A stretch of 48,929 nucleotides of DNA, taken from NCBI GenBank assembly GCA_007130145.1, contig SLSY01000086.1:1-48929 (forward strand). Reading direction: 5' to 3'. The notes beneath the pieces are model-generated. The model did not search any database. It was not told the origin of the DNA and was given only the letters and a program-made list of their open reading frames with translations. This document shows, in pieces, positions 13,771 to 46,330 of this stretch. Position numbers and translations under genes: made by a program. The first letter of the stretch is position 1; each line of letters opens with the position of its first letter. This DNA is from Bacillota bacterium. Lineage in GTDB: Bacteria > Bacillota > Sulfobacillia > UBA8153.

Positions 13771-13781
13771 GTCGCTCCCCC

Positions 13782-29499: not shown

Positions 29500-29500
29500 C

Positions 29501-31299: not shown

Positions 31300-31322
31300 C
31301 CTGTCGCCCTCCTCATCAGAAT

Positions 31323-32309: not shown

Positions 32310-32319
32310 TCTCTTTTGC

Positions 32320-33336
32320 CTACTCCTTCTTTGCCATGTTCTCTAACACGCTAGCCATCTCTTCCAGCGCTCCGCTGTCCAAATATTTCATCGCGTACAG
32401 AATTCCATTGGCTATCGCTTTGCCGTTGGAGGCACCGTGGCACTTTATACAGGGCTGAGCCAAACCCAAAAGAGGTGCTCCACCATACTCAGTATAATCA
32501 AGACGAGATTTCAATTCTCTCAGTGCCCCTTGCGCCAACCAGCCACCCATACGCGCACGAGTGCTACTATTCAAGGCGGACCCAAACATGGTGAATACCG
32601 CCTGCGCCACTCCTTCGGTACTCTTGAGAAGAAGGTTACCGGCGAACCCATCTGTCACCACCACTTCAACATCTCCCTGGTAGACATCGCGAGGCTCGAT
32701 GTTACCCACAAAGCGAATGGTCTCGGCTTCACTCAACAGCTGATAAGACTTCTTCGTGAACTCAGTTCCCTTGTTGGCTTCACCGCCAATATTGAGCAGG
32801 CCCACGGACGGGTTCTCACATTCGAGGGCGCCGCTGGCATAGGCCGATCCCATGACAGCCAGCTGTATCATCTGGCCGGGCCTCATGTCTGTGGATGCTC
32901 CAACATCTAGCACCGCGACCCCACGTCCTGTTACGGTCGGCAGTATGGTGCACAAAGCGGGTCGACTGATACCGGGCAAACGCCCCAGTACCAATGAACC
33001 ACCCACCAGCAATGCACCTGTATTGCCGGCGGAAACGAAGGCATCCCCCCGACCTTCCTTTACCAATCTGAGTCCCACAGCAATGGACGAATCGGGCTTA
33101 TGACGAAAGGCCTCAACCGGTGATTCATCATTGCCGATGATCTCGGATGCATGGACGATCTCCAGGTTATCGGGGCGCTTGAGCTCGGCTTCCTCAAAGG
33201 TGTCCTCCAGCACTTGCCGGTCACCGACCAACACCACATCGACATCAAGATAACAAGCAGCGGCCGTTGCGCCAGAAATGAGGGACAAGGGTGCTCGATC
33301 TCCACCCATACCATCAACCACTATGCAATGTCTCAT
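32320..33336 (-). CDS. plsX: Phosphate:acyl-ACP acyltransferase PlsX
   Basis: IVVDGMGGDRAP, VSAGNTGAL and GASNGKAIANGI. Confidence 0.93.
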   Translation of the reverse strand: MRHCIVVDGMGGDRAPLSLISGATAAACYLDVDVVLVGDRQVLEDTFEEAELKRPDNLEIVHASEIIGNDESPVEAFRHKPDSSIAVGLRLVKEGRGDAFVSAGNTGALLVGGSLVLGRLPGISRPALCTILPTVTGRGVAVLDVGASTDMRPGQMIQLAVMGSAYASGALECENPSVGLLNIGGEANKGTEFTKKSYQLLSEAETIRFVGNIEPRDVYQGDVEVVVTDGFAGNLLLKSTEGVAQAVFTMFGSALNSSTRARMGGWLAQGALRELKSRLDYTEYGGAPLLGLAQPCIKCHGASNGKAIANGILYAMKYLDSGALEEMASVLENMAKKE

Positions 33337-33916
33337 TGCTCTTATCGTCCTCCTCGTCCGGTTTGGACTCTAGGGCAAACACCACGAACTTACCACGGAA
33401 CACCTGCTTACCTTCAGCGCGGGTTACCACCAGAACGACGGTCTGACCACGGCGCTGCCGGATGACTTCAGCTCGGGCCACCAAACGATCTCCTACCTGT
33501 ACGGGCCGCTTGTACTTGACATTAGCCAAACCGGTCAGCACCGTATCGGCATCCACCAGCGCAATGGCCAGTGAATCGGCCTGTGCAAACACAAAATGCC
33601 CCCTTACCACTCCACTGCGGGCAAAGCCCATATCGCTGGTGGTTTCCAGGATAGAGACGGCACTTTGTCCCAGCTGCAAGTCAACCAATTCTCCCACAAT
33701 GTCCTGCGCCGCTATGGACTTAAGGGAGCTGTGTTCTCGCTGTGCTACCGCCCGTGTGCGCCGGCGTAACTCGGGGATGCCCAGCGCGAGGCGATCCAAG
33801 CGAATCGTCTGCACACTGACATCCAGCTGCTCGGCCAGATCGCGATCAGGCAGGAAGGGGTTATCCTCAAGCAATTCCTTGAGTGTGCATTGGCGCTCGG
33901 CGCGACTTGATGTCAA
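33314..33916 (-). CDS. fapR: Fatty acid/phospholipid synthesis repressor FapR
   Basis: SRAERQ..LKELLEDNPFLPDRDLAEQLDVSVQTIRLDRLALGIPELR is followed by a hot-dog thioesterase-like C-terminus. I placed the start at TTG 33916, 8 nt after GGGAGGTG. The ORF extends to 33952. Confidence 0.85.
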   Translation of the reverse strand: MTSSRAERQCTLKELLEDNPFLPDRDLAEQLDVSVQTIRLDRLALGIPELRRRTRAVAQREHSSLKSIAAQDIVGELVDLQLGQSAVSILETTSDMGFARSGVVRGHFVFAQADSLAIALVDADTVLTGLANVKYKRPVQVGDRLVARAEVIRQRRGQTVVLVVTRAEGKQVFRGKFVVFALESKPDEEDDKSNETLHSG

Positions 33917-33942
33917 CGGGCACACCTCCCTGAGACCTTCTA

Positions 33943-33993
33943 ATATGACCAACTACTAAGAGCAAGTATACATTAGTTTGGCCCCGGGGGCAA
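33943..33993 (-). promoter_or_regulatory. Candidate fapR-operon promoter (TTGCCC-17-TATACT) with an inverted repeat bracketing the -10
   Basis: The minus-strand -35 maps to 33988-33993 and the -10 to 33965-33970. ACTAA-N13-TTAGT (33955-33977) brackets the -10. A TTAGTA half-site is followed by GTTGGTCATAT (33943-33959). TTAGTA resembles my recollection of the FapR-box half-site. Confidence 0.3.
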
Positions 33994-34019
33994 TAGTTGA
34001 AAAACACCGCGCGAACGCC

Positions 34020-34052
34020 AAAAAAGCCCCGCTTAGACGCATCCAAGGGGGC
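34020..34052 (-). terminator. Rho-independent terminator after rpmF
   Basis: The minus strand reads GCCCCCTT-loop(10)-AAGCGGGGC, an 8 bp stem with a 1-nt bulge, followed directly by TTTTTT. Confidence 0.6.
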
Positions 34053-34077
34053 CCTGATCGCCTGCAAACAGGCAGAA

Positions 34078-34260
34078 TTATTTCTCTTCGACTTTAATGA
34101 CAGACCGATTATTGTAGTAACCACAACTGCCGCAAACCTGGTGTGGCATCTTCCAGTCGTGGCATCGAGGGCACTTGGCCAAATTCGGAGGCGTCAGTTT
34201 CCAATTGGCCCGACGCTTATCCCGTCTCGCCTTGGATGTCTTCTTCTTTGGTACAGCCAT
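34078..34260 (-). CDS. rpmF: 50S ribosomal protein L32
   Basis: MAVPKKKTSKARRDKRRA with Cys4 (CPRCHDWKMPHQVCGSCG). Start placed at Met3 of the ORF. Confidence 0.93.
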   Translation of the reverse strand: MAVPKKKTSKARRDKRRANWKLTPPNLAKCPRCHDWKMPHQVCGSCGYYNNRSVIKVEEK

Positions 34261-34262
34261 CG

Positions 34263-34802
34263 TCACCCACCCTTTTCTTGCTCTTCGATCTTCTTGCGTA
34301 ACTCTGCTAGAGCCTGCATGCGAGGATCAGGCGTTGCCTCTTCATCCTGCGTTACTCTCTCAAGTCCGGCACAATCCTCATCGCACAACGGTTTCATGGG
34401 AAGGGCCACAAGCAAGTGTTGCCGGATCGGCTCGAGCAAATCAATGTATTCGCCTTCTACCAGAAACCAGTCCTCTACATCCTCATCACTGTCCCGGGGC
34501 GCTTGTGATGCGATACGATACTCAATCAAAACCGGAATCTGTACGGGAAAGTCGCATCGCTGCAAACAGCGGGCACAGGTCTGTCGAGCAAGGCCCGCGA
34601 CTTCACCTCTGGCCAGTATTCCGGTACCGGTTGGACTCAATGTCACTTTCACCCGCACGGGCTCAGGAAACACCCGGTCATCGTCCGTCTCTTCGGGGAT
34701 GGCCATCTCGGCATCAATGTGGATGACTTCTCCAAAATCAGCCCGCTCCAACAGTGTCTGTACGCGAACTTTCACCTGAACACACCCCCACGCCACGCTC
34801 AT
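34263..34802 (-). CDS. yceD: YceD/DUF177 family protein (23S rRNA accumulation protein)
   Basis: Conserved position upstream of rpmF. It has a C-terminal Cys cluster and acidic tail (CARCLQRC...CDEDCAGL). Start taken at Met61 (34802), just after the stop of the upstream gene. Confidence 0.78.
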   Translation of the reverse strand: MSVAWGCVQVKVRVQTLLERADFGEVIHIDAEMAIPEETDDDRVFPEPVRVKVTLSPTGTGILARGEVAGLARQTCARCLQRCDFPVQIPVLIEYRIASQAPRDSDEDVEDWFLVEGEYIDLLEPIRQHLLVALPMKPLCDEDCAGLERVTQDEEATPDPRMQALAELRKKIEEQEKGG

Positions 34803-34812: not shown

Positions 34813-35847
34813 TCAGGACGCCTTGTCAAGGGAAAAGAGCACTTGCACCGCCTCATCCAGGTTCCCAACGGGAAACACGTCGACGGTAGTGGCGGCTTGC
34901 TCCGCCTCTCGTGCGTTGGCTGCTGGCACCAGGAAGACATCGGCCCCCGCCTTCTCAGCGGCCTGAACCTTCTGCCGAACACCGCCCACGGGGTTCACAT
35001 TGGCATCACGATCCAGAATTCCGGTCCCGGCAATCACCAAACCCTGGGGCACCAGTTCCCGGTCGTAACGTCCCATAACCTGTAAGGTGAACATAAGACC
35101 AGCCGAAGGGCCTCCCACCTCACCAGCATCTATGGTAACATCACTGGGGCCAATGACTTGAGGACCAGCGGTCAGAACCATAATGCCGATGTACGATCTC
35201 ATCGCATCCTCTGGATGCTCACCCGTCTCTATCTCCACACTAGCGATCTCTTGCTCACGTGCATAGCGAACCGCTACTATGTCTCCCGGACTAATCTCCT
35301 GCAAGTAGGCAAGGAGTTCATCGCCCGTTTGGACCGTCATACTATCAAGATGAGTTATGACATCGCCCACCTTCAGCTCCCCATGAGCGGGAGCATCAGG
35401 AAGGACATAGGTAACCACCGCGCCTTCGCCCGCCATATGCACCGGATAACCCAGTTGCTCAAAGGCCAGCTGAATGGCTAGCGCCTGACTGTCCTTCATG
35501 AGCCACTGATTTTGAAGGTAGTATTCCTCGATCGTTTGCCCCGGTCGCAAGATGTTGGACAGATGAACCATGTCAATCCCGGGATGGAAGACACCGACCA
35601 CTGCCAGCCATAAACGGGCCTGATTAGTGAACACGGTTGTCATCAAGAGTCCTTGAGATTCTCCCGCCTGACCATCAACACTGATCATAGGACCCACATC
35701 CACAGCTTGTCCCGGCCGGAGGATTAAATAGTTGGTGGGCCAGCTAAGAAAGTAAAACGCCACAACGAGTATGACAGCTAGCACGGCAAGTCGCGCCACC
35801 TGGCGACGAGCGGCTCGCATCATAGCCACCAATCGATTACCCGTCAT
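34813..35847 (-). CDS. Membrane-anchored PDZ plus Lon-protease-C-terminal-domain protein (YlbL/SepM-like)
   Basis: N-terminal TM segment, a PDZ segment (GELKVGDVITHLD), and an S16 Lon catalytic domain with GGPSAGLMFTL (Ser) and GGVRQKV (Lys). Confidence 0.85.
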   Translation of the reverse strand: MTGNRLVAMMRAARRQVARLAVLAVILVVAFYFLSWPTNYLILRPGQAVDVGPMISVDGQAGESQGLLMTTVFTNQARLWLAVVGVFHPGIDMVHLSNILRPGQTIEEYYLQNQWLMKDSQALAIQLAFEQLGYPVHMAGEGAVVTYVLPDAPAHGELKVGDVITHLDSMTVQTGDELLAYLQEISPGDIVAVRYAREQEIASVEIETGEHPEDAMRSYIGIMVLTAGPQVIGPSDVTIDAGEVGGPSAGLMFTLQVMGRYDRELVPQGLVIAGTGILDRDANVNPVGGVRQKVQAAEKAGADVFLVPAANAREAEQAATTVDVFPVGNLDEAVQVLFSLDKAS

Positions 35848-36027
35848 CCTCTTCCTCCCGCCCCGAACCTGTTAACACTCGTCGCTACAGTGGTCCAATC
35901 CCATTTTGCCACGACCAGCATAAGCCTACACCGACGATCCCTCCACCCGCGAAATCAAGGAGATGTGAACGCCTCCCCACACTCTCCGGCAATAAGGAGC
36001 TTAGGGAATGATTTCGCACTCCACCCA

Positions 36028-36056
36028 ATCCTATTTCTATATGCTTTCTTTGTCAA
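36028..36056 (-). promoter_or_regulatory. Candidate sigma-A promoter for the ylbL-like operon, implying a roughly 180-nt leader
   Basis: The minus strand reads TTGACA-17 nt-TAGGAT. Confidence 0.4.
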
Positions 36057-36241
36057 TGAACAGAGCAAGAGCCCAAAGAAATACCTGCCCAAAGATGAGG
36101 ACACATACCCGCTGTGTCCCCTGGTAACTCCTATCCCATAGCCAGCCTCATAGCATCGCTGGCGCGAATGAGGATGGGGGGTTGTTCTGCTGACCCCTGC
36201 TCACGTCGTCCCACAACGTATGCTCAGAATACGGACACGAA

Positions 36242-36273
36242 ACAAGGGGTGGGCCCAAGAGCCCACCCCTTGT
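36242..36273 (-). terminator. Terminator hairpin after the HydA-like gene
   Basis: A perfect 13-bp stem ACAAGGGGTGGGC/GCCCACCCCTTGT with a 6-nt loop lies 10 nt after the stop at 36284. It is followed on the minus strand by TTTCGTGT, a short T-run. Confidence 0.6.
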
Positions 36274-36283
36274 TGCCTCCGGA

Positions 36284-38068
36284 TCAATCAGCGTCAGAAG
36301 CTACATCCTTAGCCTTGTCCTCCGCCTTATCCTCCGCCTTATCGGTAAAACGACCGCGTGCTGTATAGTGTGTGTGCAAGAGCTCGTGAGACTTGTGTCC
36401 TAACGGCTTCTCCAGATACTCCTCGTACAGCTCCTTTACGGCTGGATTGTCATGGGACTTGCGTAAGGCTAAGTCCTTATCGGCTTGGTAAATGCCACCG
36501 ATTCTCTGTTGGCGGGTCTCGGTGTTGGTGGGAATGGGTTGTCCGCCACCACCAATGCATCCACCGGGGCAACACATGATCTCGACGAAGTGCCAATCGG
36601 CCTCTCCGCTCTTGATGCGTTCCATGAGCTCGCGGGCATTGCTCAACCCATGGCTCACAGCGACCTTAACCGTTGTGCCGGCCACGTCCACTTCCGCTTC
36701 CTTGATACCCTGGAGACCGCGCACCGGTTCAAAGTCCAGACCCGGCAGTTCATCGCCGGTGAGAACCTCATAGGCCGTGCGCAGGGCAGCCTCCATCACA
36801 CCACCAGTAGCGCCGAAGATCACTGCAGCACCCGTGCTCATGCCCAGCGGTGCATCATAATCTTCCTCTTCCAAGGATCTGAAGTCGATGCCTGCCTCAG
36901 CTATCATACGACCCAGCTCGCGAGTGGTGAGCACATAGTCCACATCCTGGTAGCCACTGGAGTTCATCTCGGGGCGCTGGGCCTCGAACTTCTTGGCAGT
37001 ACAAGGCATGATGGACACAACCACAATGCTGGCCGGGTCAATGCCCGCCTTCTCTGCGTAGAAGGTCTTGGCTAACGCACCGAACATCTGCTGCGGCGAC
37101 TTACACGTGGACAGGTTGGGCAACAACTCCGGATAGAAGTGTTCAATGAACTTGATCCATCCCGGGCTGCAAGACGTGAACATGGGCAAGACTCCGCCAC
37201 TTTGGATCCGGTCGATCAGCTCGTGCCCTTCCTCCATGATGGTCAGGTCTGCCGTGAAATCAGTATCGAACACGCGATCAAATCCCAATGCGCGCAGAGC
37301 GGCTACGAGTTTGCCGGTGCTCACTTCACCCACATCCAGACCGAAGGCTTCTCCAATCGAGACACGAATGGCTGGAGCAGTCTGCACCACCACGTGTTTT
37401 TCTGGATCGGACAGCACAGCCCAAACATCGTCTACGTATTCCTTCTCCGTCAGGGCTCCTACCGGGCACACCAGTGTGCACTGACCGCACATGGTGCACG
37501 CTGCCTCCTGCAGCTTGTCCCCGAAGGCAGGACCCACCGTGGTTTCCATGCCACGTTCGTTCAGGCCAATGGCGGATACACCCTGCACATGTTCGCACAC
37601 AGCAATGCAGCGGCGACACAGGATGCACTTCTCCGGATCTCGCACGATGGACGGGGTAGACGAATCAACCGGTCTCTCTACACGCTCGCCTTCAAAACGA
37701 GACTCTCTAATGCCCATCTCCGCGGTCAGATCCTGCAGTTCGCAGTGCTGATTGCGCACACATGTAAGGCATTCAAACGGGTGATCCGATAAGATCAATT
37801 CCAGATTCAAGCGCCGCGCTTTACGCACCGGGGCACTATTGGTTGAGATCTCCATGCCTTCACCCACTGGAGTTACGCAAGCGGCCTGCAAGGTGCGGGC
37901 ACCCTTGACTTCAACCACGCAAATCCGACACGAACCGACCACATTGACGTCTTCCAGGTAACACAACGTCGGGATCTTGATCCCAGCCTGCTGCGCCGCC
38001 TCCAATATGGTGGTTCCACTTTCGACCTGTACCTTTTTCCTGTCTATGGTCAATGTAACCAAAGCCAC
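36284..38068 (-). CDS. [FeFe]-hydrogenase HydA-like large subunit (bifurcating HydABC / StnC-like) with a variant L1 motif
   Basis: N-terminal plant-type 2Fe-2S and His-ligated/2x[4Fe-4S] domains (CYLEDVNVVGSCRIC, HPFECLTC, CILCRRCIAVC, CTMCGQCTLVCP). H-domain motifs are L1 FTSCSPGW, L2 MPCTAKKFE and L3 EIMCCPGGCIGGGGQP. Confidence 0.92.
   Translation of the reverse strand: MALVTLTIDRKKVQVESGTTILEAAQQAGIKIPTLCYLEDVNVVGSCRICVVEVKGARTLQAACVTPVGEGMEISTNSAPVRKARRLNLELILSDHPFECLTCVRNQHCELQDLTAEMGIRESRFEGERVERPVDSSTPSIVRDPEKCILCRRCIAVCEHVQGVSAIGLNERGMETTVGPAFGDKLQEAACTMCGQCTLVCPVGALTEKEYVDDVWAVLSDPEKHVVVQTAPAIRVSIGEAFGLDVGEVSTGKLVAALRALGFDRVFDTDFTADLTIMEEGHELIDRIQSGGVLPMFTSCSPGWIKFIEHFYPELLPNLSTCKSPQQMFGALAKTFYAEKAGIDPASIVVVSIMPCTAKKFEAQRPEMNSSGYQDVDYVLTTRELGRMIAEAGIDFRSLEEEDYDAPLGMSTGAAVIFGATGGVMEAALRTAYEVLTGDELPGLDFEPVRGLQGIKEAEVDVAGTTVKVAVSHGLSNARELMERIKSGEADWHFVEIMCCPGGCIGGGGQPIPTNTETRQQRIGGIYQADKDLALRKSHDNPAVKELYEEYLEKPLGHKSHELLHTHYTARGRFTDKAEDKAEDKAKDVASDAD
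36313..36345. repeat. Tandem 12-nt repeat (about 2.7 copies) encoding the (K-A-E-D)n tail of the HydA-like protein
   Basis: CCTTGTCCTCCG / CCTTATCCTCCG / CCTTATCGG, read directly from the sequence. The protein tail is DKAEDKAEDKAKD. Confidence 0.7.
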
Positions 38069-38093
38069 AGTCTATCCCTCCCTCCTATCTAAC

Positions 38094-41000
38094 CTACTCA
38101 GGCACGTCACAACGCAGGCAGCGAGCCGCTTCTTTCTTGGCCGCCTCCTCGTCATATCCGGTCTCCACTTCAGTGAAGGAACCCAAACGCTCCTCACAGC
38201 TGACACATATCGCGGGCATCTTCTCCCGCGGCATGACTTGCTCGGACACCTCGGCACGCAACACGCGTTCCACCGGCAGTTCCGGAACCACATCCCCGTG
38301 TCCGCCAAGGTACTTGTCAATGGAGCCGGCGGCCAGCTTACCAGCCTGTACGGCCTTAATCACCGTCGCTGGCCCTGTCACCAAATCGCCTCCGGCAAAT
38401 AGGCCGTCCACTCCGGTAACGCCGGCCTCGGTCGCCAGCACTGTGCCATTTCGCATGGTTTCCAGACCACACTCGGCCATAAGTTCTCCGGTGGGAACCT
38501 GGCCAATGGCGGTAATGACTACATCAGCTGGAATCTCGAACTCGGAGTCTTCCACCGGCAGGCTGCGACGCCGTCCGCTGCTGTCAAAGTCACCTGACCG
38601 CATGGTAATGCACTGTAAGGCCGCTACCTTACCATCCTGCCCCAGTGCCTTGACCGGGTTGACCATGGGCAGGATCTTGATGCCTTCATGAAGAGCTTCC
38701 TCGATTTCCAGACGCTCGGCCGGCATATCCTGCAAGCTGCGACGGTAAACAATGGTCACGCTCTCGGCACCCAAGCGTAGCGAAGAACGAGCGGCATCGA
38801 TAGCTACATTGCCACCGCCGACCACTACGACTCGCTTGCCTTGCACCTCACCCTGGCCGGAGATGTTCAACAGGCGCAAGAAAGCAGCACCGGGCTTAAT
38901 ACCCTCCAAATCCTCACCTTCAATACCCAAACTCTGATCGTTATGGGCACCAATGGCCAGGTAGATAGCATCAAAGCCTTGATCCTTCAAGTCTTGTAGC
39001 GTGAAGTCACGTCCCAAGGCTTGTCTGGTGCGGATCTCAACGCCAGCCTGGGTTATGGCCTGTATCTCTTTGTCCAGAACAGCTCTGGGCAAACGGTACT
39101 CAGGGATGCCCACCGTCAGCATACCACCAGCGACGGGCTGTGCTTCAAACACCGTGATATCATAGCCCTTGCATCCCAGATAGTATCCGGCACTCAAACC
39201 CGCTGGCCCCGCCCCTACAATGGCTACCTTCTTACCGTTATCCGGCAACCTGTCCACTTCGGGCCAGCAATCGTTCTCGATGACATAGTCCGAAGCAAAG
39301 CGCTTCAGGGCGCGGATGGCAACCGGTTCGTCGATCTGTTCACGCCGGCACCGCGCTTCGCAGGGATGGTCACATACCCGGCCACATACCACCACGAAGG
39401 GATTCTGACGGCGCACCGTCTTGTAGGCTTCCACGTACTCACCGGCCCTGACTTGATCGACGTAGATCGGCACGTCCACCTCGGCCGGACAGGTGTTTTG
39501 ACACGGCGAATCAAACAGAGAAGCGCACACAGACGCCGGACACTTGCGATCGCGGATGTGTGCTTCGTATTCGTCGCGGAAGAAATTGATGGTGCTAAGA
39601 ACAGGGTTGGGAGCCGTCTGCCCCAAGCCGCACAGCGCTGTGCTCTTGATTGATTCGCCCAGTTCCTGCAGCATCTCGATGTCCCCGTCTTGGCCTTCGC
39701 CCCGGGTGATGCGCTGGAGGATCTCCAGCATACGCTTGGTGCCGATACGACAAGGCGTACACTTGCCACAAGACTCATCCTGCACGAATTCCAGGAAGAA
39801 CTTGGCCAAGTCCACCATACAAGTATCTTCGTCCATAACGACGAGCCCACCAGAGCCCATGATGGTTCCCAACGACTGTAACGATTCATAGTCAATGGGT
39901 GTATTCAAGTGCTCCACCGGGATACATCCACCGGAAGGACCACCGGTTTGCGCGGCCTTGAACTTGCGATGGTTGGGAATGCCGCCACCGATATCATATA
40001 TGATGTCACCCAACGATGTTCCCATGGATACCTCGACCAGACCATTGTTGTTGATGGCCCCAGCCAGAGCGAACACCTTCGTACCCGGCGACTTCTCCGT
40101 ACCCATGGTAGTGAACCAGTCGGCACCTTCACGCAAGATGGGTGCGATATTGGCAAATGTCTCCACGTTGTTGAGAACCGTTGGCTTGTCCCACAAACCA
40201 GAATTGGCAGGAAACGGTGGTCGCGGACGCGGTTCGCCGCGCCGCCCCATAATGGATGTGAGAAGAGCCGTTTCTTCTCCACACACAAAGGCACCCGCAC
40301 CGAGCCGGATGTCAATGTCGAAGTCAAACCCGCTGCCAAAGATGTTCTTGCCCAAAAGGCCCTTTTCTCTCGCCTTTTCAATGGCCAGATACAGGCGCCT
40401 AACGGCAATGGGATACTCGGCGCGGATATAGATGTAACCTTGGTTGGCCCCAACGGCATAGCCAGCAATGGCCATACCTTCCAGGATGGAATGGGGGTCG
40501 CCCTCAAGGATACTGCGATCCATGAAAGCACCAGGATCACCTTCATCTGCGTTACACACCACGTACTTGGGTGAACCATCAGCTCGAGCGGTGAATTCCC
40601 ACTTCATACCCGTTGGGAATCCGCCTCCGCCCCGGCCTCGCAATCCTGACTTTCTGACCTCGGCCACCACATCTTCGGGCTTCATTTCAAGCAAGACCTT
40701 GCCGAGACCAAGATAGCCATCTTGCGCAATATACTCTTCCAGAGACTCAGGATCAATAAGTCCACAGTTGGCCAGCACGATACGCTCTTGCTTCTTGAAA
40801 AAGTCGATATCCTGAAAATCAGATACCGTCATCTCTGCATCAGGCGGATGATACAATAGCCGCTGGACCACACGTCCTTTTAGGAAGTGCTCAGACACAA
40901 GTTCGGGTACATCCTCCAAATGGACTTCACAGTACATGACGCCCTCAGGATACACCACCATGTTAGGACCAAAGCGACAAAAACCGAAGCATCCGGTTTC

Positions 41001-41156
41001 GACAATGCGAATCTCACGCTCGAGCCCGTTATCCTCGATTTCCTCCTTGAGCGCTTGGCGCAAGGCCGTACTGTTTGAGGCCTCACATCCAGTACCGGCA
41101 CACACCAGCACATGGCTTCGGAACAAATCCACAGAGAACCTCCTCCCTTCTTCCAC
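38094..41156 (-). CDS. Fusion protein: Trx-like [2Fe-2S] + NuoF/HydB-like FMN/NADH module + GltD/NfnB-like FAD/NADPH module
   Basis: aa 1-100: VLVCAGTGC...GCFGFC. aa 125-535: GRGGGGFPTG, ADEGDPGAF, ESCGKCTPCR...LCGLG. aa 538-1020: CPASVC..CQNTCP, VCGRVCDHPCEARC, VAIVGAGPAGLSAG, VVVVGGGNVAIDAARS, TIVYRRS..DMPA. Confidence 0.93.
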   Translation of the reverse strand: MEEGRRFSVDLFRSHVLVCAGTGCEASNSTALRQALKEEIEDNGLEREIRIVETGCFGFCRFGPNMVVYPEGVMYCEVHLEDVPELVSEHFLKGRVVQRLLYHPPDAEMTVSDFQDIDFFKKQERIVLANCGLIDPESLEEYIAQDGYLGLGKVLLEMKPEDVVAEVRKSGLRGRGGGGFPTGMKWEFTARADGSPKYVVCNADEGDPGAFMDRSILEGDPHSILEGMAIAGYAVGANQGYIYIRAEYPIAVRRLYLAIEKAREKGLLGKNIFGSGFDFDIDIRLGAGAFVCGEETALLTSIMGRRGEPRPRPPFPANSGLWDKPTVLNNVETFANIAPILREGADWFTTMGTEKSPGTKVFALAGAINNNGLVEVSMGTSLGDIIYDIGGGIPNHRKFKAAQTGGPSGGCIPVEHLNTPIDYESLQSLGTIMGSGGLVVMDEDTCMVDLAKFFLEFVQDESCGKCTPCRIGTKRMLEILQRITRGEGQDGDIEMLQELGESIKSTALCGLGQTAPNPVLSTINFFRDEYEAHIRDRKCPASVCASLFDSPCQNTCPAEVDVPIYVDQVRAGEYVEAYKTVRRQNPFVVVCGRVCDHPCEARCRREQIDEPVAIRALKRFASDYVIENDCWPEVDRLPDNGKKVAIVGAGPAGLSAGYYLGCKGYDITVFEAQPVAGGMLTVGIPEYRLPRAVLDKEIQAITQAGVEIRTRQALGRDFTLQDLKDQGFDAIYLAIGAHNDQSLGIEGEDLEGIKPGAAFLRLLNISGQGEVQGKRVVVVGGGNVAIDAARSSLRLGAESVTIVYRRSLQDMPAERLEIEEALHEGIKILPMVNPVKALGQDGKVAALQCITMRSGDFDSSGRRRSLPVEDSEFEIPADVVITAIGQVPTGELMAECGLETMRNGTVLATEAGVTGVDGLFAGGDLVTGPATVIKAVQAGKLAAGSIDKYLGGHGDVVPELPVERVLRAEVSEQVMPREKMPAICVSCEERLGSFTEVETGYDEEAAKKEAARCLRCDVPE

Positions 41157-41177
41157 TCTCCAAAACTAATTGCATCT

Positions 41178-41552
41178 TCATTCTTCTCGTGACTCACTTA
41201 CGTTGAGCGCCCATTCGGATATGACATTGCCATTGGCCACGTGTTGTGCCACGATCTGCCGGGCTCGGCTGGGCGAAACTTCTCCATACGTCACCCGGGG
41301 CTGTCCAGGCATGAAGACATCTACCAGGGGCTCACGCGAGCAAATGCCCACGCATCCTGTCTGTGTCACGACGGCCTTGAGGCGGCGCTTGTTCAATTCA
41401 TCCAGGATAGATTCCAGTGCATCACGAGCGCCAGCAGCAATACCACAGGTACCCATACCCACGACGATGCGGGCCTCATCCTGTCCCTGACGGACCCGGA
41501 TATCTTCCTTCACTCTATCCTTGATCTCTCTGAGCTCTTCCAGAGACTTCAC
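41178..41552 (-). CDS. Thioredoxin-like [2Fe-2S] ferredoxin (HydD/HndB-like)
   Basis: 124 aa with VVGMGTCGIAAGA and QTGCVGICSREP (four Cys). GTG start in a TAGTG overlap with the upstream stop, preceded by GGAGGTG. Confidence 0.85.
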   Translation of the reverse strand: MKSLEELREIKDRVKEDIRVRQGQDEARIVVGMGTCGIAAGARDALESILDELNKRRLKAVVTQTGCVGICSREPLVDVFMPGQPRVTYGEVSPSRARQIVAQHVANGNVISEWALNVSESREE

Positions 41553-42103
41553 TAGATTTCACCTCCTCTGAGGTCTTGGATACTGGTCCGGTATGTGTCC
41601 CGTACCCACTTTACCACTTGCGGATGGTTGATGGGTAGATCATCCAACTCCTCACGCATGCGGCGCGTGTCGAACACGCACTCTTGACCATTATAACAGT
41701 GGTGATACACGAGGTCTAGATGGGGATTGGTTGCCACAATGATAGCCAGTGTGCCACCCATATCGCCCAGTGGCGGTCGATCAACGTGCGAATGCTGAAA
41801 GACTGCTACTACCCGTGTTCCGCCCCTTGGTGCCGCCGTTACCTTCAGGTACCCGTCACTTTGCTCACATGCTTGCGCCAGCAAGGGTAAGCCCAATCCT
41901 ACCCGCCGGGTCTTGCGCGTGGTGACAAAGGCATCGGCCACACTCGCACGCATTTGTTCATCCATGCCGGGGCCGTCATCATCCACCATCACGGTCAACC
42001 GATCCTCGGTTGTGTCTTCATCGATGTTGACCCAGATGCAGCGAGCGCCAGCCGCACGGCTGTTCTCATACAGGTCCAACAGGTGAAGAGCCAGTTCCTC
42101 CAA
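41552..42103 (-). CDS. Stand-alone GHKL (HATPase_c) ATPase domain protein, no DHp/HisKA domain
   Basis: N-box-like LDLYENSRAAGA, G1 VDDDGPGMD and G2 RRVGLGLPLL. Only 183 aa. Wedged between the NuoE-like and Trx-like genes. Confidence 0.8.
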   Translation of the reverse strand: MEELALHLLDLYENSRAAGARCIWVNIDEDTTEDRLTVMVDDDGPGMDEQMRASVADAFVTTRKTRRVGLGLPLLAQACEQSDGYLKVTAAPRGGTRVVAVFQHSHVDRPPLGDMGGTLAIIVATNPHLDLVYHHCYNGQECVFDTRRMREELDDLPINHPQVVKWVRDTYRTSIQDLRGGEI

Positions 42104-42104
42104 T

Positions 42105-42602
42105 TCAGTTGCTTTCCGGCTTGCGATAGCGTTCTAGCAGGGCAGACACGCGATCAGCCTTAATCCGCGCATGGGTGTCTTCGTTAACCGTCAGCACAGG
42201 AGCCAAGCCACATGCGCCCAAACAACGAACCACCTCTAGTGAGAACTCCCGGTCATCGGTGGTATCCCCGGGTGAAATGCCCAATTCCCTCTGCAGTCTC
42301 TCCAGCACCTTGGGAGCACCTCGGACATAACAGGCTGTTCCCTGACAACAGTTCACTTGAACGCGTCCCTTGGGTTTCAGTGAGAAGAGTGAATAGAACG
42401 TGACCACACCATAGATCTCGGCCAAGGAGACGTTCAGTCCCTCAGCGATCATCTCCTGAGCTTTTCTGGGCACATAGCCGAGTGACTCCTGGGCTGTGTG
42501 GAGCACCTGAATCAACGCACCTGCGTTACCACGATTTGTCTCGATAGCCTTCTCAAGTGCACCGTAATCCTCTTCCTGGCAAACACAAACCTTTTCCTCC
42601 AA
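42105..42602 (-). CDS. NuoE/HydC-like [2Fe-2S] subunit
   Basis: CCQGTACYVRG...VRCLGACGLAP is the Cx4C...Cx3C NuoE motif, with LIQVLHTAQE near the N-terminus. Confidence 0.9.
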   Translation of the reverse strand: MEEKVCVCQEEDYGALEKAIETNRGNAGALIQVLHTAQESLGYVPRKAQEMIAEGLNVSLAEIYGVVTFYSLFSLKPKGRVQVNCCQGTACYVRGAPKVLERLQRELGISPGDTTDDREFSLEVVRCLGACGLAPVLTVNEDTHARIKADRVSALLERYRKPESN

Positions 42603-42604
42603 CT

Positions 42605-43366
42605 CTAGTTCCTCCCTTCTCTGACGCCTACTAAGGCCAGCCGGTGGCCATCATCACCCCGGCAAGCCTTACGAAATGATTCTAGATCCAGCCGCTGACA
42701 ATACACACCCGTCTTCTGTCGCCCCACCTCGCTTCTGTGATGCGCATCAGACGATGTTACCAAGGCGATCGACTCGCCAATGGCATGCATCCTCCGCAGC
42801 GCATCCGTATTTCTGCCACCGGACACCTCTAGAGCTGTGACCCCGAGGCCTTCCGGCACAAAACCCAGTACTCCTAGCAACCCGAAGCTCTCTCTCTCAA
42901 TGTGGGCCGGTATACTTACCCCCCCTAAGGCCCGGGTCATATCAACCACCTGCTCCAGTGAATAGCCACTGGCTGTGGATAGCATGTTGTCCTCTTCTCC
43001 GACCACCCGGTTCGTGCAGTCGTAAATCAGCTGCTCTCCTAACACACGCGCCATAGATCGCCGGCGGAGAAGAGTATCACCTATTTGCTGCGACATATCT
43101 TTTGCTTGCTCAAGGGACGAGAAGATGCAAAGGACATGGACTTCTTCACTGGTCTCCACCTCAAGGCCCGGCCAAACGATCAAGTCGAAGGGCTCTGCCT
43201 GGCACATCACCGCCTCGCAATTGAGAGCACTGTTATGGTCGGTTATGGCGATGGCATCCAATCCCACTTCCAGGGCTGCCGTCACCACACCGTGAGGATC
43301 CATATCAGCTCCAGCGCAAGGCGAGAGCGCAGTGTGCACATGGAGATCAACCAGGTGCCACTTCAT
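42605..43366 (-). CDS. PHP-domain metal-dependent phosphoesterase
   Basis: VDLHVHTALSPC, AITDHNS and SDAHH. The start at Met13 forms an ATGA overlap with the upstream stop (43363-43366). Confidence 0.85.
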   Translation of the reverse strand: MKWHLVDLHVHTALSPCAGADMDPHGVVTAALEVGLDAIAITDHNSALNCEAVMCQAEPFDLIVWPGLEVETSEEVHVLCIFSSLEQAKDMSQQIGDTLLRRRSMARVLGEQLIYDCTNRVVGEEDNMLSTASGYSLEQVVDMTRALGGVSIPAHIERESFGLLGVLGFVPEGLGVTALEVSGGRNTDALRRMHAIGESIALVTSSDAHHRSEVGRQKTGVYCQRLDLESFRKACRGDDGHRLALVGVREGRN

Positions 43367-43716
43367 TCTTTGTCCTTTAGGCATGCAAACAAGCGACCAC
43401 ACACCTCAAAACTGCGCGACGATGCACTGAACAAGGCCACCTGCTCTCGCCTGGCCGTCTCGAGCGTCTCGGGTTTAACTGGCCGATCTCCCGTGATCAC
43501 TATGCCAGCCATTCCCACCAGAACGGCCACAGCCACGATGTTCTGATGGCTTTGCATCGTAACCCACAAACTGCCTTCTTGAGCATGCGCCATCACGTCC
43601 GAGAGCAGGTCTCCCACATACCCTGCCTTTACCGGGCGCTCGGGATCATATGAGCCCTGAGGACACAATTCGAGTGCTTCCACAACTTCAACCAGCTTCA
43701 CCATCATCATCCTCAC
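43363..43716 (-). CDS. DRTGG-domain protein
   Basis: About 115 aa with GYVGDLLSDVMAHAQEGSLWVT and AGIVITGDRPVKPETLETARREQVALF. The start lies among clustered Met codons at 43704-43716 and overlaps the upstream gene end. Confidence 0.78.
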   Translation of the reverse strand: MRMMMVKLVEVVEALELCPQGSYDPERPVKAGYVGDLLSDVMAHAQEGSLWVTMQSHQNIVAVAVLVGMAGIVITGDRPVKPETLETARREQVALFSASSRSFEVCGRLFACLKDKE

Positions 43717-45019
43717 TCTGTTGAGTATGCGACTTCATCCCCATGGAGCGGGGCAGGTGCCGGGCCAAGTCAACTATTTCTTCAGCCATTCCGTGAACTC
43801 GTTCACGCAGCTTCAGCACACAATCCATCTCATCTGCGTAACCGCGTACAATATCCTCTGCCAAGGCTCGACAGCTGGGAGCGCCACAAGCTCCGCAATC
43901 CAAGCCGGGCAGTTGATCTTCCACCGCTTCCAGCTGGCGGAGTTTGTCAATGGCGCGAGATATATCATCGTCGAGTCTGAGCACGGGGCGCGCTTTTACC
44001 TCGCTCAGGTAGGTGAAGTAGTCACTCTTTAGACGTTGCTCTAACCCGGGGGTCGCCTCCTCGCCATGTGCCCCGCGTTCGGCAGCCAGATTACGCACTC
44101 GTACACGAGCGACAAAGGGATTTTCCACGGCCAAACACCCACCCACGCAACCCGTAACACAAGCCTGGGCCTCTATGAAGTCCAGTCCGGCCAGCTTGTC
44201 TCGCTCCACTTCTTCAAAGACTTTAATGCACTGGTGAATGCCATCCACGGCAAGAGAATCTCGCCCCATGATCGTGGTCTCACCGCCGGAGCGCCCCCAA
44301 CCCATTCCGTAACCCGAAGCCTTAGGAATGAGAGGAGCGCGGGCCGCATGCTCCATTTGCCGCAAACATTCGGCATAAATAGCAGACATGGAGAAGGCTC
44401 CATCAACCGCGCTCTTGTCACGACCCACCGGCTGCTTGATCGCCGTTACCTTGGCCGGACAAGGAGAAACGAAAAAGACTCCATGCTCGGGACCGAGAGT
44501 GTCCTTGGCAATCTTAGCTGCCATCTCCATGGGAGACTCTAGTTTGATCAAATGATCGAGAAGCGCGGGGAAACGCACCTGAATCAGGCGCACCACGGCC
44601 GGACAAGCAGAAGAAATCAAGGGACGGGGTGAGGAATGTTCCTTCAAGTAACGCCGCATCGCCATGGATACGGCATCGGCGGCCAGCGCCACTTCATACA
44701 CTTCGTCAAAACCGATCAACCGTAAAGCACTCAGTACCACTCCTGGATCAGGCGTAGGAAACTGTCCCATGAAAGCCGGCGCCGGTATGATCACTGACTT
44801 GGGATATGCCTTCACGAGGTCCAGCGAATCGGTGACGGCCAGCTTAGCATGGTTAGGGCAGACACGAATGCATTCCCCGCAATCAATGCACCGTTCTTCA
44901 AAGATCCAAGCTCGCCCGTCCCTCACCCGAATCGCTTCGGTAGGGCAGCGCTTAATGCAGTTGGTACACCCTTTACACTTTTCTGCATCTAAGGTGACTG
45001 AATGGTAGTAGTCGGCCAC
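43688..45019 (-). CDS. Sensory-type [FeFe]-hydrogenase homologue (HydS-like) lacking a PAS domain
   Basis: N-terminal 2x[4Fe-4S] (CKGCTNCIKRCP, CIDCGECIRVCP). H-domain variants are SSACP, SPCPAK and EAQACVTGCVGG. C-terminal CGACGAPSC-x16-C. I placed the start at GTG 45019, 6 nt after AGGAGG. The ORF is open to 45106. Confidence 0.85.
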   Translation of the reverse strand: MADYYHSVTLDAEKCKGCTNCIKRCPTEAIRVRDGRAWIFEERCIDCGECIRVCPNHAKLAVTDSLDLVKAYPKSVIIPAPAFMGQFPTPDPGVVLSALRLIGFDEVYEVALAADAVSMAMRRYLKEHSSPRPLISSACPAVVRLIQVRFPALLDHLIKLESPMEMAAKIAKDTLGPEHGVFFVSPCPAKVTAIKQPVGRDKSAVDGAFSMSAIYAECLRQMEHAARAPLIPKASGYGMGWGRSGGETTIMGRDSLAVDGIHQCIKVFEEVERDKLAGLDFIEAQACVTGCVGGCLAVENPFVARVRVRNLAAERGAHGEEATPGLEQRLKSDYFTYLSEVKARPVLRLDDDISRAIDKLRQLEAVEDQLPGLDCGACGAPSCRALAEDIVRGYADEMDCVLKLRERVHGMAEEIVDLARHLPRSMGMKSHTQQSEDDDGEAG

Positions 45020-45111
45020 AGCCGTCCTCCTGAATTGAACTAGTTTTGTCATGCATTGCATGGGTCCTGCCGCTGCCCGTATATCCGGGCCTCCGTCAGG
45101 GAGCAAACGTC

Positions 45112-45567
45112 TTACTCTCGACCTTTGCTGAAAAAAAGCAATCGCAAGGTTGTACCCTTGTCCACAACCGAATCAAGGTGCATTTGATCGACACAACGCT
45201 TAATGTTGGTCAGCCCCATGCCCGCCCCGAACCCCATTTCCCGCACGTGCGTCGGGGCCGTCGAGTATCCATCCTGCATCGCCAAATCAATATCTGGAAT
45301 GCCTGGCCCCTCATCCTCAACGCATATTTCTATGCGCTCCGGACCAATCTTCGCCACCAAGCATCCGCGGTGCGCGTGAATCACCACATTGATTTCGGCT
45401 TCATAGGTTGCGCTGGCTACACGTCTAATCATATCCGCCGGCATGCCCAGTTGCGTCATAGTGCGCTTGATTCCTGTCGCCGCTTCCCCGGCCGTTGTGA
45501 AATCCATTCCCTTGATTCTAAACTCCAGTACGATACGGGAATCATTGTTCGGTCGGGCGTCATTCAC
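45112..45567 (-). CDS. RsbW/SpoIIAB-like GHKL serine-protein-kinase (anti-sigma-factor-like)
   Basis: 151 aa with AGEAATGIK, N-box YEAEINVVIHA, G1 VEDEGPGIPD and G2 GFGAGMGLTNIKR. Confidence 0.8.
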   Translation of the reverse strand: MNDARPNNDSRIVLEFRIKGMDFTTAGEAATGIKRTMTQLGMPADMIRRVASATYEAEINVVIHAHRGCLVAKIGPERIEICVEDEGPGIPDIDLAMQDGYSTAPTHVREMGFGAGMGLTNIKRCVDQMHLDSVVDKGTTLRLLFFSKGRE

Positions 45568-45593
45568 CCCTTACTCACTCCTGTTCAGGCCAT

Positions 45594-46148
45594 TCACGAA
45601 TTACAACCGGGAAGACCCGCTTTATAGAGTAAACCACAGCTCGTGTACAGCAAGTGGTCGGTGGCAAGCAGAGGTAAACCGCGCTCAGCTGCCATTTCCA
45701 GCACCTTTTCAGACGGGAGTGGACGCTTGCCCCTGACGAACACGACGGCACTGGCATCAATGATATACGCACTGTGAATCACTTGGACGTTCGTCAACCC
45801 GGTCAAAAGGACAACACCGGGCTTGCCAAAGGTCAAGAAGTCGCTCATCATGTCGCAACCAAAGGCCGACTCAACCACCAGTTCCTTGTGCTCCTCGCCG
45901 GTCAAGAAGGTAGCATCAAGCAACTCCTGTATCTGACCTAGTTTAATGGGTCTCAACCTCCTGGTCTTGGTAATCCATAATGTCTGTGCAACCAATAATA
46001 CATTCAGCACGCGCCAAGGTATTTCCTGCCCTTCCAACCCACTTGTCGGAGAACTATTTGGTTTTCGCATGAATAAGCGGCATAAGCGGATCAAAATATG
46101 GGCCAGAGGGCGTGAGACGGCATGTGAAGTAGAATATCCAACCGTCAT
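45594..46148 (-). CDS. DRTGG-domain protein, true start probably near 45945
   Basis: The C-terminal roughly 115 aa are DRTGG-like (CDMMSDFLTFGKPGVVLLTG, AVVFVRGKRPLPSEKVLEMAAERGLPLLAT). The N-terminal roughly 65 aa of the ORF look non-protein-like. AGGAGG sits at about 45954-45959. Confidence 0.7.
   Translation of the reverse strand: MTVGYSTSHAVSRPLAHILIRLCRLFMRKPNSSPTSGLEGQEIPWRVLNVLLVAQTLWITKTRRLRPIKLGQIQELLDATFLTGEEHKELVVESAFGCDMMSDFLTFGKPGVVLLTGLTNVQVIHSAYIIDASAVVFVRGKRPLPSEKVLEMAAERGLPLLATDHLLYTSCGLLYKAGLPGCNS
46073..46089. repeat. Tandem ATAAGCGG-N1-ATAAGCGG upstream of the hyd/stn-like operon
   Basis: Read directly from the sequence, with a period of 9 nt. It lies in the probable untranslated region upstream of the first DRTGG gene. 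Confidence 0.5.
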
Positions 46149-46330
46149 GGTAGTTTTACCCCCTCGCGCGCCCCAGACCCTCTACCGCTGAGACAACGTT
46201 TCAAAAGCAGGATTATGCCACAATAAGGGCGAAGGATTGACTTTGTGGTACGTAGCGAGCCCATGTGACGAGGGTAATCGCTCTTCGAGCTGAATGGTAT
46301 AGCATTGGGTGGGGACGGTGAGTCACCGGC

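Follow-up and report, generated by a model that had tools for sequence, protein, structure and literature searches.

The window analysed here covers positions 1 to 48,929 of contig SLSY01000086.1 of a Bacillota bacterium, assembly GCA_007130145.1. On its minus strand lies a gene that we call the hydB::gltD fusion, followed by an [FeFe]-hydrogenase gene. A single polypeptide is predicted to comprise a thioredoxin-like [2Fe-2S] domain, a complete NuoF/HydB core with a flavin mononucleotide (FMN) and NAD(H) site, and a GltD-type module with two [4Fe-4S] clusters, flavin adenine dinucleotide (FAD) and NADP(H). The GltD-type module occupies the place of the ferredoxin-like domain with which HydB subunits normally end. 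The coordinates of the fusion, its domains and the neighbouring genes are given in Table 1.

Table 1. Features of the hydB::gltD locus, in window coordinates
Feature	Position	Strand	Basis or remark
hydB::gltD fusion gene	38094..41132	minus	probable start GTG 41132; 1012 amino acids (aa) and stop codon
N-terminal thioredoxin-like [2Fe-2S] domain, Bfu cluster "B5"	40842..41132	minus	Pfam weak; NCBIfam 2Fe-2S ferredoxin NF041612
NuoF/HydB core: FMN/NAD(H) site, SLBB, [4Fe-4S] "B1", "B2"/Zn site	39525..40784	minus	Pfam, PDB sequence matches
Junction ASLFDSP, 7 residues between C544 (last HydB ligand) and C552 (first GltD ligand)	39504..39524	minus	alignment
GltD-type Fe-S domain (Fer4_20 without the first ~27 profile positions)	39267..39503	minus	Pfam; alignment to StnC 8oh5_C, NfnA 9bov_A and 9n5u_A, NfnB 4ylf_B
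FAD and NADP(H) Rossmann domains: VGAGPAGL, GIPEYRLP, VGGGNVAIDAAR, IVYRRSLQDMPA	38322..39233	minus	Pfam Pyr_redox_2; alignment to StnC, NfnA and NfnB NADPH-binding domains
C-terminal tail, aa 990-1017 (...FTEVETGYDEEAAKKEAARCLRCD), supplying C1013 and C1016	38106..38189	minus	alignment and Fer4_20 rescoring
hydA, [FeFe]-hydrogenase catalytic subunit, 594 aa	36284..38068	minus	Pfam, NCBIfam
HydD-like thioredoxin-fold 2Fe-2S-ferredoxin-related protein, 124 aa	41178..41552	minus	NCBIfam NF041612 E 2e-11, below cut-off; no Pfam match
Histidine-kinase-like ATPase, HATPase_c only, 183 aa	41552..42103	minus	Pfam E 8e-14; between hydC and hydD-like gene
hydC/nuoE, thioredoxin-like [2Fe-2S] subunit, Bfu "C1", 165 aa	42105..42602	minus	Pfam 2Fe-2S_thioredx E 3e-50; NCBIfam NuoE/HoxE
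Upstream regulatory gene set as a whole	42605..46148	minus
PHP-domain protein	42605-43402	minus	Pfam
HydS-like sensory [FeFe]-hydrogenase homologue	43688-45106	minus	Fe_hyd_lg_C E 3e-33, two Fer4, C-terminal "FeS" PF04060
Second HATPase_c protein	45112-45567	minus	Pfam
DRTGG protein	45594-46148	minus	Pfam

The longest open reading frame (ORF) of the fusion, as listed and translated, runs over 38094..41156 on the minus strand and has 1020 codons. The GTG at 41132 is probably the true start, because a GGAGG ribosome-binding site lies just before it, because the database copy of the protein (P0001) has 1012 aa, and because residues 1-271 then pair residue for residue with residues 1-271 of A. mobile HydB (7t2r_B). 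Residues are numbered here on the 1020-aa translation; subtracting 8 gives the A. mobile HydB numbering.

Pfam families cover the chain in order: a weak thioredoxin-like 2Fe-2S match at aa 13-100 (2Fe-2S_thioredx, Suc_Fer-like), Complex1_51K at aa 167-338 (E 4e-48), SLBB at aa 362-410, NADH_4Fe-4S at aa 449-533 (E 2e-35), Fer4_20 at aa 540-628 (E 3e-24) and Pyr_redox_2 at aa 642-939 (E 2e-30). Among chains of known structure, aa 11-550 match the HydB/BfuB chains of bifurcating hydrogenases and of Stn/Nfn-ABC enzymes (E 1e-186 to 1e-250), and aa 550-1017 correspond to the GltD-like part inserted in NfnA/StnC, with E 1e-106 to 1e-119. The initial annotation, made from the letters of the DNA and its ORFs, had already read three fused modules in this ORF, an NADH/FMN (NuoF) and an NADPH/FAD (GltD-type) site in one polypeptide, and a C-terminal part of GltD/NfnB type. 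All three points are borne out by the Pfam families, the PDB sequence matches and the motifs that it quoted, which are present; the strand is minus. NCBIfam holds no dedicated family for the fusion, which falls under its NuoF models.

A structural model of the fusion was computed with AF2 from a 74-sequence alignment (mean pLDDT 88.3, pTM 0.85) and served for its confidence values and for Foldseek fold matches only. The pTM value over a chain of two modules suggests that these are held in a fixed mutual arrangement. The N-terminal half of the model matched BfuB chains with a target-normalised TM-score (TMt) of 0.80-0.95, and the C-terminal half matched the GltD parts of NfnA/StnC as well as P. 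furiosus NfnL (5jca_L; TMt 0.81, root-mean-square deviation 1.9 Å). No single solved chain spanning both halves was found by Foldseek, the query-normalised score (TMq) being at most 0.52.

The HydB core and the replaced ferredoxin arm

Conservation was counted in an alignment of 158 full-length fusion sequences from more than 12 phyla. The FMN/NAD(H) site of the core is recognised by the motifs GRGGGGFPTG, NADEGDPGAFM and CGEETAL. The ligands of cluster B1 (C463, C466, C469 and C509) are invariant, and those of B5 (C19, C24, C56 and C60) are kept in 149-157 of the 158 homologues. In A. mobile HydB, the B2 site is formed by C438, C476 (Thr in FeFe enzymes), H525, C531 and C536 (PMC9304861). The equivalent residues of the fusion are C446, T484, H533, C539 and C544, four of which are invariant (C446, H533, C539 and C544), with T, S or C at position 484. 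Two further Bfu-specific residues, A202 and M204 of A. mobile HydB, correspond to A210 and M212 and are likewise invariant. As far as alignment can tell, every Bfu-specific site of the beta subunit other than B3 and B4 is therefore retained in the fusion.

In ordinary HydB, the motif AHIRDxKCPAxxC is followed by a ferredoxin-like domain carrying clusters B3 and B4. The alignments of the fusion to solved HydB chains end at aa ~548-556, and Fer4_20 comes next; Pfam finds no ordinary 2x[4Fe-4S] Fer4 dicluster domain in the fusion protein, which also lacks a CxxCxxCxxxCP motif. The GltD module is thus placed by the alignments exactly where HydB has its C-terminal B3/B4 domain, a replacement that the initial annotation had proposed and that holds. 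Its boundary has to be moved, since CPASVC, previously counted with the GltD module, contributes C539 and C544 to the B2/Zn site of HydB, and the GltD ligands start at C552.

In Bfu enzymes, B3 and B4 form the arm along which low-potential electrons travel to ferredoxin after leaving the mobile cluster of HydC (PMC12018979, PMC9304861, PMC10482914). In T. sibiricus NfnABC, ferredoxin lies 12.8 Å from both clusters, and loss of B4 nearly abolished bifurcation (PMC12018979). The part missing from the fusion is the very domain to which current Bfu models and cryo-EM ascribe the reduction of ferredoxin (PMC12018979, PMC9304861). The layout, which had been taken as that expected for an enzyme of NADH, NADPH and ferredoxin, speaks for an exchange of ferredoxin for NADP(H) no less than for an enzyme with three carriers.

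This combination also sets the fusion apart from BfuB as usually defined. It has the FMN/B1 domain, the B2 site, the B5 domain and the BfuC and BfuA partners, and it lacks the C-terminal B3/B4 domain (IPR017896). As the Bfu survey of Schut et al. picked its BfuB sequences by IPR017896, the ferredoxin-type 4Fe-4S InterPro domain, the fusion variant may have been left out of it for this reason. The N-terminal 540 residues are 49-69% identical to solved HydB/BfuB chains, and the FMN/NADH, B1, B2 and B5 sites are shared with the HydABC/Bfu enzymes (the FeFe-HydABC of T. maritima, A. woodii and T. kivui, and the NiFe-HydABCSL of A. mobile). In contrast, the defining B3/B4 part of BfuB is replaced by a 470-residue module for FAD, NADP(H) and two [4Fe-4S] clusters.

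A junction of this kind could in principle arise from a mis-joined contig, which would make an artificial fusion near 39545. Apart from the unusual length of the protein, nothing speaks for such a chimera. The spacing between C544 and C552 is exactly 7 residues in all 158 full-length homologues, which come from independent assemblies and include isolates; we therefore give a chimera no credence and rejected it.

Permutation and type of the GltD module

The six cysteines of the GltD Fe-S domain (C552, C556, C591, C595, C599 and C603) and K618 are invariant or nearly so among the fusions; C591 is present in 157 of 158. The FAD motif GxGxxG, GIPxYRLP, the NADP-type GxGxxA and the YRR motif are essentially invariant and have the form seen in NADPH-bound StnC: G648, G650, G653, R688, G780, G782, A785, Y804 and R805 are found in every sequence and R806 in all but one of the 158. 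In the bifurcating geometry of NfnB, the conserved Arg is hydrogen-bonded to FAD N5. R688, in GIPEYRLP, is the counterpart of this Arg and equally of R239 of StnC, which in that non-bifurcating subunit sits ~6 Å from N5 (PMC10482914).

The domain is incomplete at its start and its missing segment appears to lie at the other end of the protein. T. maritima NfnB (residues 4-43) and a P. furiosus NfnL homologue (5vj7_A, residues 6-47) both carry, at the N-terminus, a stretch that aligns with the C-terminal tail of the fusion. In NfnB/NfnL, this tail-like segment directly precedes the PCxxxCP that, in the fusion, opens the module at C552. In StnC and Csac NfnA, the segment also stands after the Rossmann domains, and the fusion tail aligns with it contiguously. 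Rescoring against Fer4_20 gave 71.3 bits in the native order (profile positions 29-111) and 99.6 bits when aa 980-1017 were moved before aa 550 (positions 3-111 of 113), as compared with 70.2 bits for a control in which a 38-residue linker was put in front of aa 550. By these alignments and scores the GltD module of the fusion is circularly permuted, and the tail is the displaced N-terminal segment of its Fe-S domain. C1013 and C1016 are therefore the first two ligands of the GltD motif CxxC...CxxxCP.

This changes the meaning of the two C-terminal cysteine pairs, which the initial annotation had described as an extra CxxC...CxxC ending the protein. Both pairs are present, with positions corrected from 983-986 and 1012-1015 to 984-987 and 1013-1016, but they do not form a cluster site of their own. 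The first, CVSC (window positions 38169-38207 span aa 984-996), is peculiar to this protein, as in 157 of the 158 sequences the column of C984 is a gap and C987 is substituted. The second, CLRC, which 157 of the 158 share, is the first half of the GltD motif in its permuted place. An additional C-terminal cluster was accordingly rejected.

With regard to the type of module, the best sequence matches of aa 550-1017 are T. sibiricus NfnA (2e-120), C. saccharolyticus NfnA (3e-118) and S. ovata StnC (1e-106), followed more weakly by T. maritima NfnB (4ylf_B, 4e-94) and GltD (1e-57). K618 is invariant and aligns with K170 of StnC, at the position of a Glu in NfnB. This residue is the non-Cys ligand of the FAD-proximal [4Fe-4S] cluster, Glu in the bifurcating NfnB and Lys (K170) in StnC, whose FAD has been shown to be non-bifurcating (PMC10482914). 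Since NfnA/StnC match best, the permutation is common to them and the fusion, and a Lys stands at the K170 position, the module is of Stn/NfnABC type as judged from these comparisons.

The fusion accordingly shares several features with StnABC/NfnABC (S. ovata 8oh5, C. saccharolyticus 9bov, T. sibiricus 9n5u): the permuted GltD with RCxxC after the Rossmann domains (RCLRC in the fusion tail), the Lys ligand (K618), the NADPH motifs, the NuoE/NuoF-type core and the best sequence and fold matches to aa 550-1017. It differs in having four cysteines between C591 and C603, where StnC/NfnA have three, and in the location of the module. In Stn/NfnABC, GltD resides in an A subunit devoid of an H-cluster and the B subunit keeps B3/B4 (PMC10482914), whereas the fusion carries the module at the C-terminus of the B subunit and its A subunit appears to be a true hydrogenase. 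With NfnAB (the T. maritima and P. furiosus NfnB/NfnL) and the GltD subunit of glutamate synthase, the C-terminal half shares its fold, the two [4Fe-4S] clusters, FAD, NADPH and the conserved Arg of GIPxxRLP. In contrast to these, the segment order is permuted, the ligand is Lys instead of Glu, and no NfnA-like (PyrK-like), GltB or Glu_synthase gene was found among the ORFs of the window; membership of NfnAB, with its Glu ligand and NfnA partner, or of GltD proper, with its GltB partner and unpermuted order, is thus not indicated, although a Glu_synthase-domain gene follows the fusion in three other genomes. The fusion protein is best described, from these alignments, as HydB-like with a Stn-type NADPH module, a full member of neither family.

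Operon, distribution and partners of the fusion

The hydA gene lies 25 bp downstream of the fusion gene. According to Pfam, HydA contains Fer2_4, a NuoG-type 4Fe-4S domain, two Fer4 domains, the H-cluster domain and the small-subunit domain, and its score of 945 bits for the NCBIfam model NF040763 ("NADH-dependent [FeFe] hydrogenase, group A6") exceeds the cut-off of 765. The three H-cluster motifs L1, L2 and L3 are present (TSCSPGW, MPCTAKKFE and EIMCCPGGCIGG), in the same forms as in HydA proteins found beside an ordinary HydB, e.g. that of Thermoanaerobacter thermocopriae. Overall, the HydA of the window is 52-70% identical to HydA proteins encoded next to ordinary hydB genes and belongs to the same clade as that of HydABC/Bfu enzymes. 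With L1-L3 in HydA and a NuoF domain encoded by the adjacent gene, the enzyme falls in group A3, the multimeric, NuoF-linked [FeFe]-hydrogenases.

The intact H-cluster motifs indicate that the complex is a hydrogenase and not a Stn transhydrogenase. The initial annotation had spoken of a complex with NuoE and HydA-like partners, which Pfam and NCBIfam identify in the operon as NuoE/HydC and an [FeFe] HydA, and had kept a Stn-type (NfnABC) transhydrogenase among its options. In such an enzyme the HydA-like subunit would act only as an electron wire. A NuoE, a NuoF-like subunit, a GltD module and a NuoG-like Fe-S chain are indeed the ingredients of Stn, and the GltD half is nearest to NfnA/StnC. 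Nevertheless, HydA has all three motifs, exceeds the NCBIfam cut-off and resembles ordinary HydA, the GltD module is on the B instead of the A subunit, and the B3/B4 of StnB is missing. We consider a Stn-type enzyme extremely improbable, and membership was rejected on the HydA motifs and the NF040763 score.

The order hydC, histidine kinase, hydD, hydB and hydA, together with the HydS/PHP/DRTGG set, is the same in many Clostridia loci with an ordinary hydB, and is also that of the HydABC/Bfu operons with their HydS/PHP/DRTGG regulators. The operon around the fusion is thus of the standard kind for bifurcating hydrogenases, and its genes upstream of the fusion follow one another closely. The HATPase_c gene between hydC and the hydD-like gene has the same place whether the locus contains a fusion or a plain HydB. 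The HydS/PHP/DRTGG/HATPase_c genes are, by their domains and order, the usual H2-sensing regulatory set of such operons. A simple pattern search found none of the three canonical H-cluster motifs in the HydS-like protein. The HydD-like protein has only three cysteines (C36, C66 and C70) and may be without a normal [2Fe-2S] cluster. A scan for promoters and terminators over 35500-48000 gave counts no higher than in shuffled sequence, so that the operon limits are drawn from gene spacing only, and an Rfam scan of the whole window returned no matches.

Homologues of the fusion are widespread. A homologue search gave 120 database clusters of ~1010 aa with 61-73% identity and the same Pfam set. Carriers include complete isolate genomes (Thermanaeromonas toyohensis, Moorella sp. 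Hama-1, Zhaonella formicivorans, Anoxybacter fermentans and Desulfitibacter alkalitolerans), and Pelotomaculum terephthalicicum is a further isolate among those with closed or near-closed genomes. In a scan of one genome per species, ~47 loci had matches running past the junction and 39 complete fusion ORFs were recovered. These loci include members of Bacillota, Atribacterota, Armatimonadota, Actinomycetota, Spirochaetota, Aminicenantes, Nitrospirota, Desulfobacterota, Chloroflexota, Verrucomicrobiota, Lentisphaerota, Acidobacteriota, Gemmatimonadota and one Thermoplasmatales metagenome-assembled genome. Among the best 150 clusters of a representative-cluster search (50% identity), only ~11-15 were near-full-length fusions, mixed with single-domain matches, and this proportion is not a measure of family size. 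In a neighbour-joining tree of the N-terminal halves, built without support values, the fusions mostly group together and apart from the main plain-HydB clade, with a few plain or truncated HydBs interleaved among them; a single origin of the fusion is only suggested by this tree.

The representative-cluster search also returned proteins of ~650 aa (P0193, P0209, P0221, P0234 and others) consisting of NADH_4Fe-4S, Fer4_20 and Pyr_redox_2. Their match to the fusion begins at aa ~400 and extends to aa 1008, and they are similar to NCBIfam NF009410. Their arrangement of a NuoF C-terminal part and GltD is like that of the fusion, from which they differ by the absence of the FMN domain; they may be SfrB-like (Geobacter SfrB), and no biochemical characterisation of them was found in the literature covered.

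In the loci of the species-level scan, a full HydA follows the fusion in ~25 cases. Other partners, several of which were assigned from ORF layout and partial HydA matches instead of a Pfam scan, comprise a Fer2_4 protein and a Glu_synthase FMN-domain protein (L017, L035, L044), FdhA-type molybdopterin enzymes (L020, L039, L040, L043, L050), a NuoG-like protein with NiFe small and large subunits (L036, L037, L041), and a 590-aa polyferredoxin-like protein (L010). Judging from these gene neighbourhoods, the fusion is a general alternative beta module and not a one-off.

A different arrangement is observed in five loci (L003, L005, L029, L018 and L006), where another nuoE and another, shorter hydB (536-556 aa) come after the fusion. 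In the short HydB, the FMN loop and the H-x5-C-x4-C site are preserved, but the chain stops there and has no ferredoxin motifs, so neither beta subunit of these loci has B3/B4. A single hydA follows in L003, L005 and L029; in L018, the HydA-like gene matches the N-terminal Fe-S part only.

Elsewhere in the window, an EtfB/EtfA pair (12577-14627, minus), in which EtfA has an N-terminal 4Fe-4S ferredoxin domain, adjoins two ABC exporter genes (8833-12407). A cluster of plsX, fabH, a DegV-family gene, fabD, fabG and fabF (27139-33336, minus) lies a few kb downstream of the hydrogenase operon; fatty-acid and phospholipid synthesis is a typical NADPH consumer. A DDE transposase (50-1324, plus) is found at the contig end and a XerC-type tyrosine recombinase at 4207-5154 (minus). 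The remaining genes are housekeeping ones (topA, trmFO, smc, ftsY, ffh, rimM, trmD, rnc and rnhB), and several ORFs of 159-260 aa at 33314-34779, 25878-26504 and 46965-48201 gave no Pfam match at E <= 1e-5. The G+C content of the window is 55%.

Proposed electron path and its meaning

Based on these observations, we propose that the complex is, on balance, a HydABC-type hydrogenase with NADP(H) on the ferredoxin arm, replacing ferredoxin wholly or partly. The fusion would be the beta (diaphorase) subunit, with HydC, HydA and possibly the HydD-like protein as partners. The distal GltD cluster, whose ligands would come from among C552, C556, C603, C1013 and C1016, is most likely at the position of B3, because C552 lies 7 residues past the last B2 ligand, ordinary HydB starting B3 after a similarly short linker, and because the model predicts a single rigid body for the entire chain. 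That would put the FAD/NADP(H) site at the end of the arm that normally serves ferredoxin, and two arms would meet at the FMN/B1/C1 site, one leading to NAD(H) via FMN and the other to NADP(H) via FAD. With HydA delivering or withdrawing mid-potential electrons in the form of H2, the overall reaction would read 2 H2 + NAD+ + NADP+ <-> NADH + NADPH + 2 H+.

In the cell, potentials are about -280 mV for NAD and about -380 mV for NADP, and that of H2 is -414 mV at 1 bar (PMC9304861). From the Nernst equation, we estimate that the mean of the two nucleotides, -330 mV, equals the H2 couple at roughly 100-150 Pa (about 1.5e-3 bar). This is near environmental H2 levels, so the enzyme could run either way in anoxic habitats. 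The pairing of the fusion elsewhere with other modules that oxidise H2 or formate, of FdhA type or NuoG-like with NiFe subunits, also favours NADP(H) on the ferredoxin arm. A stricter version would be a wholly ferredoxin-independent Bfu class, in which the low-potential arm ends in FAD/NADP+ and electrons from H2, or from formate in the FdhA-linked relatives, are split between the NAD and NADP pools; we regard this version as possible but tentative.

The B2 His and Cys, B5 and HydC are all still there, which speaks for a fusion complex gated by conformation as Bfu enzymes are. This bears on another arrangement, an uncoupled dual-cofactor hydrogenase, in which NADH (at FMN) and NADPH (at FAD) would exchange electrons with the H-cluster independently. 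H2 is able to reduce both nucleotides at standard potentials, and non-bifurcating HydAB enzymes whose beta subunit has no B3/B4 do exist in Syntrophomonas wolfei and Syntrophus aciditrophicus (PMC9304861, PMC7311640). However, the beta subunits of these HydAB(C) enzymes lack the B2 His and the other extra clusters, B2 to B5 (PMC9304861), whereas the fusions keep B5 almost throughout and the B2 His and Cys without exception, and add a second flavin, which places them outside that group. Moreover, an ungated path from FMN to FAD would amount to a futile NADPH:NAD+ transhydrogenase, collapsing the NADPH/NADH disequilibrium. Uncoupled exchange with the H-cluster therefore seems to us quite improbable.

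Several points weigh against placing NADP(H) on the ferredoxin arm. In Stn/NfnABC, the same GltD type is a mid-potential input, not a low-potential output, and by analogy a Lys-ligated cluster may not be tuned for a low-potential arm. The reduction of NADP+ by electrons from that arm would waste driving force as compared with the reduction of ferredoxin. Ferredoxin could also dock at the GltD Fe-S domain, by analogy with NfnB, or between HydC and the beta subunit. The Glu_synthase-domain partner in three genomes hints that the GltD module can feed a partner flavoenzyme in the classical manner. Finally, no biochemical, functional or structural characterisation of any member of the fusion group was found in the literature, in which subscription journals were incompletely covered.

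Some of these points would fit a four-substrate hybrid, in which the enzyme continues to use ferredoxin, docked at the GltD Fe-S domain or at the HydC/HydB interface, and has FAD/NADP(H) as an additional entry. It would act at once as a bifurcating hydrogenase, with H2, NAD+ and ferredoxin, and as a Stn-like transhydrogenase, with NADPH, NAD+ and ferredoxin, or use NADPH and H2 interchangeably as mid-potential donor. Every feature of the Bfu core is kept, as such a hybrid would have it, and the module type is that of the NADPH input of Stn/NfnABC. In NfnAB, ferredoxin is reached through the two [4Fe-4S] clusters that the homologous subunit carries, and in T. sibiricus NfnABC ferredoxin is located between the C subunit, at its C-terminal domain, and subunit B, and not at the B4 tip (PMC12018979). 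On the other hand, B3/B4, which in the T. sibiricus enzyme are within 13 Å of ferredoxin and of which B4 could not be destroyed without nearly ending bifurcation, are absent. By sequence, the tether of the module also appears to be at the B3/B4 position, a long way in the chain from B1/A1, where mid-potential donors enter. We consider this hybrid unlikely, if less so than uncoupled exchange, and retain NADP(H) on the ferredoxin arm as the preferred interpretation. The earlier caution that the substrate set is not deducible from the sequence remains valid.

A multimeric [FeFe]-hydrogenase coupled to NADP(H) is likewise represented by HytA-E/FdhA of Clostridium autoethanogenum. Its single nucleotide site lies on the NuoF-like subunit, and we know of no GltD module or second flavin in it. 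This NADP-specific bifurcating enzyme needs ferredoxin together with NADP(H) (PMC6288185).

The architecture of the fusion is mentioned once in the literature that we found, in a 2018 genome paper, and peg.3895 of Vallitalea guaymasensis L81 is an annotated homologue. The GltD fusion is not described in the Bfu survey (PMC9304861), in a review of multimeric hydrogenases (PMC6288185) or in a comparison of HydB proteins (PMC7311640). The permutation and the exact replacement of the ferredoxin arm were not found in the literature, the coverage of which was incomplete.

Bfu-type enzymes are the most abundant and least understood family of electron-bifurcating enzymes, and their core, including B3/B4, has been reported as invariant. 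A natural variant, present in multiple phyla, that swaps B3/B4 for an NADPH-reducing flavin module offers a ready test of the role of the low-potential arm and of gating. Automatic annotation names the fusion proteins "NuoF", and under the HydDB rule "GltD ... but not NuoF" the enzyme would be classed with the ordinary bifurcating A3 hydrogenases; metabolic models built on these labels therefore assume a ferredoxin stoichiometry that may be wrong. A direct link from H2 to NADPH is possible and would alter the redox and ATP bookkeeping of the fermenters, syntrophs and acetogens that carry the fusion. If the ferredoxin-independent class is real, it would be a widespread, unrecognised route from H2 to the NADPH/NADH disequilibrium in anaerobes of more than 12 phyla and, in the reverse direction, NADH and NADPH would be confurcated to H2.

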